Of a DNA stretch of 64,000 nt, positions 15,681 through 15,869 are shown piece by piece (position 1 is the stretch's first letter; each line of letters starts with the position of its first letter). Below the pieces are notes generated by a model. It did not search any database. It saw nothing but the letters and a program-made list of their open reading frames with translations, and was not told the DNA's origin. Source of the DNA: Chlamydiia bacterium (GTDB lineage Bacteria > Chlamydiota > Chlamydiia > Chlamydiales > Rhabdochlamydiaceae); the NCBI GenBank assembly GCA_963804085.1, contig CAWDOQ010000016.1, forward strand, positions 1 to 64,000. The letters run 5' to 3'. The translations under genes and the position numbers were made by a program.

Positions 15681-15869
15681 ATGAGCGAAGTTTTAGTAGT
15701 AGCTAGCAAAGTTAAAGGTTTCATTAAGAAAACCGGCGACATGAATACATCTGCATCAGTGATGGAAGCTCTTACAAAAATCGTAGAGAGAGAGTGTCTT
15801 AAAGCGATCGAAAATGCTCGCAATGACAAGCGTAAGACTGTGATGGATCGCGATTTTGGGGCGTTTTAA
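15681..15869 (+). CDS. bacterial histone-fold protein (Bd0055/HBb-like), 62 aa
   Basis: MSEVLVVASKVKGFIKKTGDMNTSASVMEALTKIVERECLKAIENARNDKRKTVMDRDF; AAGGAGG RBS; RKTVxxRD loop-2 motif of histone folds. Confidence 0.9.
   Translation: MSEVLVVASKVKGFIKKTGDMNTSASVMEALTKIVERECLKAIENARNDKRKTVMDRDFGAF

Follow-up and report, generated by a model that had tools for sequence, protein, structure and literature searches.

A gene for a real histone of the HBb/Bd0055 type was found in a 64,000-nt stretch of a chlamydial genome (the whole of the DNA analysed, hereafter the window). Its 62-residue product is most likely a dimeric, non-specific DNA-bending or DNA-coating protein of the nucleoid, a reading to which a probability of about 0.85 may be assigned. 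The gene itself occupies a palindrome loop, in and around which the following features were located.

15121..15534, minus strand: gene for an RDD-family membrane protein (PF06271, by Pfam), the left neighbour, which adjoins LicD in relatives
15553..15586, no strand: left C-rich arm of GTGCCC hexamers with the inner end CCCGATGTT (inverted-repeat search)
15587..15668, plus strand: AT-rich 5' leader within the loop, which may contain a promoter (sequence reading)
15669..15675, plus strand: ribosome-binding site AAGGAGG, 5 nt ahead of the ATG (direct reading)
15681..15869, plus strand: histone gene, 62 aa, of the HBb/Bd0055 type, that is, an alpha3-truncated "bacterial dimer" histone (ORF, homology and model)
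15878..15899, no strand: right G-rich arm, made up of AAGATCGGG, GGGCAC hexamers and CGTTT and complementary to the left arm (inverted-repeat search)
15900..17006, minus strand: LicD-family gene (PF04991, by Pfam), the right neighbour
16984-18372: Wzy_C gene, upstream of LicD

The histone ORF extends on the plus strand from the ATG at 15681 to the TAA stop codon at 15867-15869 and is enclosed by an 83-aa ORF that begins with TTG at 15618. Because M1 was unchanged throughout a 68-row alignment of histone relatives, translation of the histone may be concluded to begin at the ATG rather than at the TTG. The first-pass annotation had described a 62-aa ORF with a strong ribosome-binding site nested in a longer TTG ORF, and this description was borne out by direct reading of the AAGGAGG motif and the ATG. 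A simple promoter scan of the leader returned no sigma-70-like site that passed. The histone gene was present in one copy in its own assembly (2.13 Mb in 24 contigs, 91.3% complete, with a contamination estimate of 4.97%). Its GC content was 40.7%, versus a mean of 48.8% for the long ORFs, and its GC3 was 39.7%; these values correspond to the 3rd and 8.5th percentiles of the long ORFs, respectively. A low GC content would also be expected of a short Lys-rich gene.

The relationship of the product to known histones was studied by sequence comparison. In a phmmer search of PDB sequences, the protein matched HBb/Bd0055 over residues 1-59 (8fvx_A, E 6.5e-16; 8cmp_A, 7.3e-16), and weaker matches were obtained to 9qt0 (1.1e-3) and 9f2c (8.8e-3). 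A profile built from the 68 relatives matched HBb at 6.4e-25, HLp (9qt0) at 2.8e-8, HTkC (9f2c) at 9.2e-8, HmvA at 9.3e-5 and archaeal histone A at 0.028. At E<=1e-3, 1055 proteins were matched by the histone, the best of them being 90% identical. The general histone models did not reach their cut-offs on this protein: Pfam PF00808 (CBFD_NFYB_HMF) gave 13.8 bits, below 21.4 bits, and NCBIfam NF043032 (archaea_histone) gave 28.3 bits, below 50 bits. These two models under-reach the divergent HBb-type branch, and the HBb chains in the PDB were named CBFD_NFYB_HMF domain proteins by their depositors.

An AlphaFold2 model computed from the alignment had a mean pLDDT of 89.1 and predicted helices at residues 3-19, 25-48 and 56-59. 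The predicted order is thus alpha1-L1-alpha2-L2-alpha3, with an alpha2 of 24 residues and an alpha3 of only 4 residues. This arrangement fits the alpha3-truncated class, for which Schwab 2024 (PMC11390915) gives a short alpha2 and only 3-4 residues in alpha3 as defining features, and the 62-aa protein also lies within the 65-aa limit of the class and has no other domain; the "bacterial dimer" category of the same paper was set by sequence clustering. When the model was compared with the PDB by Foldseek, the top five entries were all HBb (TM 0.74-0.77, 56-58% identity), followed in order by HTkC, HLp, eukaryotic H2B and archaeal HPhA. Two face-to-face alpha3 histones, HLp from Leptospira (PDB 9qt0-2) and HTkC from Thermococcus (9f2c), share the alpha3-truncated fold with the model (TM 0.71-0.74) but are only 33-36% identical to the chlamydial protein. 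HLp and HTkC reportedly form tetramers.

The oligomeric state was also predicted. The modelled homodimer scored an ipSAE of 0.83, versus 0.01 for the best control, although this score may represent memory of the solved HBb dimer. Of 30 solved homodimers, 20 came up to the ipSAE mark that was applied, as did 1 of 23 solved single chains. The dimer runs shared at least 98% of their contacts, the pLDDT of the partner chain was 89, and the predicted contacts included 35:35 between the two alpha2 helices as well as 23:54 and 53:22 between L1 and L2. Because the HBb dimer has already been solved, the dimer prediction should be taken as a sign of likeness and not as independent proof. The claim of the first-pass annotation that a chlamydial genome carries a singlet histone of the Bd0055 type is therefore supported by the sequence, the predicted fold and the predicted dimer, and the structural comparison that it had proposed returned a predicted histone fold, with HBb entries ranked first and archaeal HPhA further down.

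The residues by which HBb touches DNA were then located in the chlamydial protein. Hu 2024 (PMC11317129) names N22, R57, S9, T53, T8, S24, K10, K12, K52 and K16 as the DNA contacts of HBb. Nine of these ten residues were kept (S9, K10, K12, K16, N22, S24, K52, T53 and R57), and T8 was replaced by A8. The L2 motif RKT....D, which contains the RD clamp (RxTxxxxD, R51-D58), was present as R51 K52 T53 V54 M55 D56 R57 D58, and the S9-K10 motif was accompanied by the alpha1 lysines K12 and K16. In the 68-row alignment, the L2 motif, S9-K10 and the alpha1 lysines were invariant or at least 90% conserved; 14 columns were invariant among the 68 relatives, and the chlamydial histone kept all of them. 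The S9-K10 and RKTV L2 motifs have been described in Hocher 2023 (PMC10627809).

Compared with the solved HBb/Bd0055 protein (PDB 8fvx, 8fw7, 8cmp, 9ezz and 9f0e), which is called a "bacterial singlet" in Hocher 2023 and classed as a "bacterial dimer" histone in Schwab 2024, the chlamydial protein is alike in length, in sequence (34/59 residues identical, counted from the phmmer alignment), in its short alpha2 and in its 4-residue alpha3. It also shares S9-K10, the alpha1 lysines, the RKTVM.RD form of the L2 motif and the homodimer, which is predicted here. The differences are A8 in place of T8, the host, which is an uncultured, obligate intracellular chlamydia, and the position of the gene in the loop of a palindromic repeat. 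In the mechanism proposed, the 62-residue histone fold would form a handshake homodimer, and the dimer would bend DNA, as described in Hu 2024, and/or coat it, as described in Hocher 2023. DNA binding, high abundance and a nucleoid role are what we infer: the histone may be an abundant nucleoid protein that works beside HU, which is present in the same genome.

Homologues in environmental chlamydiae had been suspected to be already on record in the first-pass annotation, and this was correct. Table S1 of Hocher 2023 (PMC10627809) includes Waddlia chondrophila ADI38622.1, Simkania negevensis CCB88880.1 and several proteins from Chlamydiae MAGs, as well as a 77-aa paralogue from Simkania negevensis (CCB88888.1) with a Lys-rich N-terminal tail, and the legend of its Fig. 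6a reports high histone expression in Waddlia. Chlamydiota are also named in Schwab 2024 (PMC11390915) and Hu 2024 (PMC11317129) among the phyla with "bacterial dimer" histones. A literature search for chlamydia-specific work on the histone returned only these three papers, and passages of De Barsy 2019 on heparin-bound Waddlia proteins make no mention of a histone-fold protein. The Waddlia, Simkania and MAG proteins belong to the same family and phylum as the protein studied here, are 60-63 aa long and carry the invariant motifs, but they come from other family-level lineages and different loci. The histone was thus identified correctly, but it is not a novelty: the family has been catalogued since 2023 and now gains a further chlamydial lineage. 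The palindrome-loop context was not found in the cited histone papers; patchiness by family and the lack of a link to Hc1, presented below, are also new with respect to them.

The distribution of the histone was determined in a sample of the phylum. The 62-aa query was found in 92 of 400 scored genomes (one more genome was left unscored). The high-quality genomes, 335 in all, included 72 carriers, and 59 of 212 genera were represented among the carriers. Broken down by family code, carriers made up 9/90 genomes in f1, the family of the window, 19/69 in f7, 30/35 in f9 (including one Simkania locus), 5/6 in f12 (including one Waddlia locus) and 5/5 in f5. None were found among 23 genomes of f3, 29 genomes of f4 (1.0-1.4 Mb in size) or 46 genomes of f6. 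Relatives inside the phylum were 49-82% identical to the histone, and near relatives outside it, labelled Bdellovibrionota, Oligoflexales, Myxococcota, Pseudomonadota, Spirochaetota and Planctomycetota, were 57-81% identical. A tree of 92 rows and 62 columns was without resolution and placed the window sequence in a polytomy, so no donor can be named. The chlamydial rows in this tree required 12 label changes, at least 4 of them forced by supported branches, versus a mean of 30.7 after shuffling.

Two side observations concern other chlamydial carriers. Ten Simkania-like genomes of f9 (G107, G034, G032, G045, G163, G060, G030, G053, G302 and G076) have a second, divergent histone paralogue that is 33-42% identical to the 62-aa query. 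In four chlamydial loci (L014, L020, L023 and L044), a conserved stretch, TTAAAAATTTTTCCCAT..., precedes the histone, and the start of the downstream gene is similar; the locus and its promoter would thus seem to be stable in that genus, in contrast to the window.

Chlamydiae have a biphasic developmental cycle, and the histone could accordingly be regarded as a condenser of elementary-body (EB) chromatin that complements or replaces Hc1/Hc2. Hc1 and Hc2 (HctA and HctB) of Chlamydia are likewise small basic nucleoid proteins in the same phylum with possibly overlapping roles, but their histone-H1-like fold is unrelated, and Hc1 (PF07432) was found in 338 of the 400 genomes, compared with 92 of 400 for the histone. 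Within the family of the window, 70 of 90 genomes carried Hc1. In favour of a condenser, the assembly of the window itself lacked a detectable Hc1: the HMM search gave no match, and tblastn with two Hc1 proteins of the same family returned only the Lys/Ala-rich tails of ribosomal proteins. However, this assembly is just 91.3% complete, and the absence of Hc1 may simply reflect the missing 9% of the genome. In the same genome, three strong and further weaker matches to TLC nucleotide-transporter genes were found, and the OmcB family (PF03504) gave no match, as was also the case in the controls.

The comparison with the distribution of hctA, as proposed in the first-pass annotation, revealed no association. 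Among the 399 other genomes, 77 had both the histone and Hc1, 14 had the histone only, 261 had Hc1 only and 47 had neither, which gives an odds ratio of 0.99 (related genomes not being independent). Therefore, the histone neither systematically replaces nor accompanies Hc1. Its distribution (none in f4 and f6, and one-tenth of the genomes in its own family) also argues against a developmental role. Expression of HBb itself points in the same direction, since Schwab 2024 (PMC11390915) describes the Bdellovibrio protein as highly expressed in the growth phase and abundant in the attack phase too. For comparison, Additional file 6 of Beder and Saluz (PMC6090853) gives values of 10,700 in EB and 2,648 in RB for Waddlia hctA. 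It is thus unlikely that the protein is an EB condenser; a developmental-cycle role is possible but unsupported.

The histone gene is bracketed by GC-rich arms with a 6-nt period. The best arm match around the gene was 19 nt long, versus at most 11 nt in shuffled sequences, and none of 77 other histone loci exceeded their own shuffles for a bracketing inverted repeat. The arms were carried by no other histone locus, GGGCAYGGGCAY being absent in 94 of the 96 loci searched for them. The loop core of the repeat family, TAATCCGG, overlaps the histone stop codon, and the ends of the histone loop, GATGTTTTCTTT... and ...TAATCCGGAAGAAGATC, resemble one loop subfamily of the repeat. The loop interior that contains the histone had no second copy in the genome. 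The other carriers in the family of the window hold the gene elsewhere and had no neighbours in common with the window.

In the window, LicD and RDD are 365 nt apart, and the histone lies between them on the opposite strand. In 6 of 11 relatives' loci, Wzy_C, LicD and RDD followed one another in this order and were co-directional, with a LicD-RDD gap of about 0-180 nt and no histone; the remaining 5 LicD loci had no RDD within reach. The loci compared belong to genus code g2, with the histone in 0 of 4 genomes, and are distant, their LicD being 51-58% identical.

Two sequencing runs were consulted for further copies of this locus. In run X2, contigs were identical to the window over 15649-15941, a range that takes in the ORF together with the right arm and the LicD end; a contig bridging the left junction was not seen. 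In run X1, which contains a relative about 95% identical, the match ended near 15593, where the left arm has its inner edge, and another contig began at 15883. These breaks could reflect a different loop content or just contig breaks at repeats, and neither an empty site nor its absence was shown. An apparent joint from 14422 to 15883 in run X1 is repeat-induced.

Several of these observations point to an insertion: the 19-nt bracket, a repeat with 59 copies in this genome and none in 95 genomes of the family (described below), the LicD-RDD adjacency in relatives, the unique loop interior and the low GC content. It is therefore probable, with appreciable room for doubt, that a resident REP/REPIN-like palindrome, specific to this lineage and situated between LicD and RDD, received in its loop a unit of about 290 nt, comprising the leader and the histone gene. 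The gene would thus have arrived by insertion into a palindrome loop.

If the gene arrived in this way, it might be a recent passenger with little expression and without a role in its host. Its antisense position between two genes adjacent in relatives, its low GC content and the lack of a promoter-like site in the leader by the simple scan would all agree with this. However, the ORF is intact, its ribosome-binding site is of the consensus type and every column invariant in the 68-row alignment was kept; moreover, the relative in run X1 also retains a fragment of the ORF (15755-15865). A passenger without function is therefore improbable. Least probable is a secreted effector whose target would be host chromatin instead of the bacterial nucleoid, since although Chlamydiae are described as secreting chromatin-directed proteins (NUE, and Wcw_0377, a SWIB protein that reaches the host nucleus), the histone family is common to free-living or predatory bacteria (57-81% identity), and a section heading of Hocher 2023 (PMC10627809) calls Bd0055 nucleoid-localized. 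A nucleoid histone of the HBb type remains the preferred reading.

The palindrome around the histone belongs to a dispersed family of the form (GTGCCC)n, loop, (GGGCAC)n, with the minimal loop GAATTAATCCGGATC. In the window, 18 arm matches were found, versus 0.17 expected, and further palindrome copies were located at 5183-5286, 14369-14453, 22374-22410, 35803-35858 and 63511-63542. Genome-wide, there were 46 arm pairs, most with loops of 15-50 nt, and the G-rich arms showed a G3N3 periodicity. A 23-nt core had 59 matches in the genome and none in a backward control. None of 95 other genomes in the family contained this core, and the repeat may be concluded to be lineage-specific. A distinct dispersed repeat, about 190 nt long, was observed at C7:3094-3281 and in at least six other places.

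Other contents of such loops were also studied. All three full-length genes for 23S_rRNA_IVP (PF05635, a four-helix-bundle protein) in this genome were bracketed by long inverted arms of the hexamer-periodic kind seen around the histone, and the three genes were mutually 60-69% identical. They are located as follows.

C7:6834-7253: IVP gene, with the bracketed locus at C7:6797-7202 (equal to L109 3798-4203)
C10:17589-17984: IVP gene, with the bracketed locus at C10:17481-18060
C10:160294-160674: IVP gene, with the bracketed locus at C10:160165-160728

A fourth, partial PF05635 match had no arms. A region of 6.3 kb around the IVP gene on C7 (C7:4898-11202) recurred on another contig (C19:345937-339640) with 98.4% identity, and the IVP gene and its copy were counted once; the repeated stretch may be a true duplication or may come from a second strain or haplotig, the contamination estimate being 4.97%. 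The IVP cassette on C7 is flanked by trpS and a kinase gene, which in 6 of 19 relatives' loci were divergent neighbours separated by about 30-175 nt; an IVP homologue was found in none of the 19. Two cargo loci, those of the histone and of the C7 IVP, thus separate genes that adjoin each other in relatives. A search of 91 other histone loci for PF05635 homologues returned none. One further palindrome (C19:331400-331771) has a loop of 326 nt that contains a different dispersed repeat (33 BLAST hits genome-wide) and a nested hairpin, and this content is consistent with loops being insertion hot spots.

We suggest tentatively that the loops of these hexamer-periodic palindromes act as slots for single small genes, having received the three IVP genes, another repeat and the histone. 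If the palindrome and its loop gene move or recombine as a unit, they may constitute an undescribed vehicle similar to an intervening sequence (IVS) or a REPIN, although this is a doubtful proposition at present.

Precedents exist for both comparisons. REP elements are described in Tobes and Pareja 2006 (PMC1525189) as insertion targets of IS1397, ISKpn1, IS621 and ISPpu9. The palindromes studied here resemble REP/BIME and REPIN elements in being dispersed, GC-rich and intergenic with foreign DNA inside, but the insert is a single non-transposase gene and not an IS. Intervening sequences of 23S rRNA are known with a PF05635 ORF between inverted repeats. They are alike in having a small ORF between long inverted arms, whereas the elements in this genome lie outside rRNA.

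Other assignments of the repeat were considered. The cargo and histone loci were rejected as rRNA intervening sequences, having given no Rfam match at the gathering threshold. The arms were dropped as integron attC sites, since the copies do not form arrays but are spread across most contigs, and many are without AAC/GTT ends. The sole gene for a Y1 transposase (IS200-like or RAYT-like, PF01797) was located at C17:57827-58168 (L113). It is flanked by an inverted repeat of another kind, about 95 nt long, and no cognate RAYT gene flanked by the GTGCCC repeat was found.

The cultivable carriers Waddlia and Simkania offer a place to ask what role a true histone has beside HU and Hc1. The similar bracketing of the histone and IVP genes is a testable lead on the movement of tiny genes. 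If the suggestion of a palindrome vehicle is true, it would offer one concrete explanation of how bacterial histones came to be spread so patchily.
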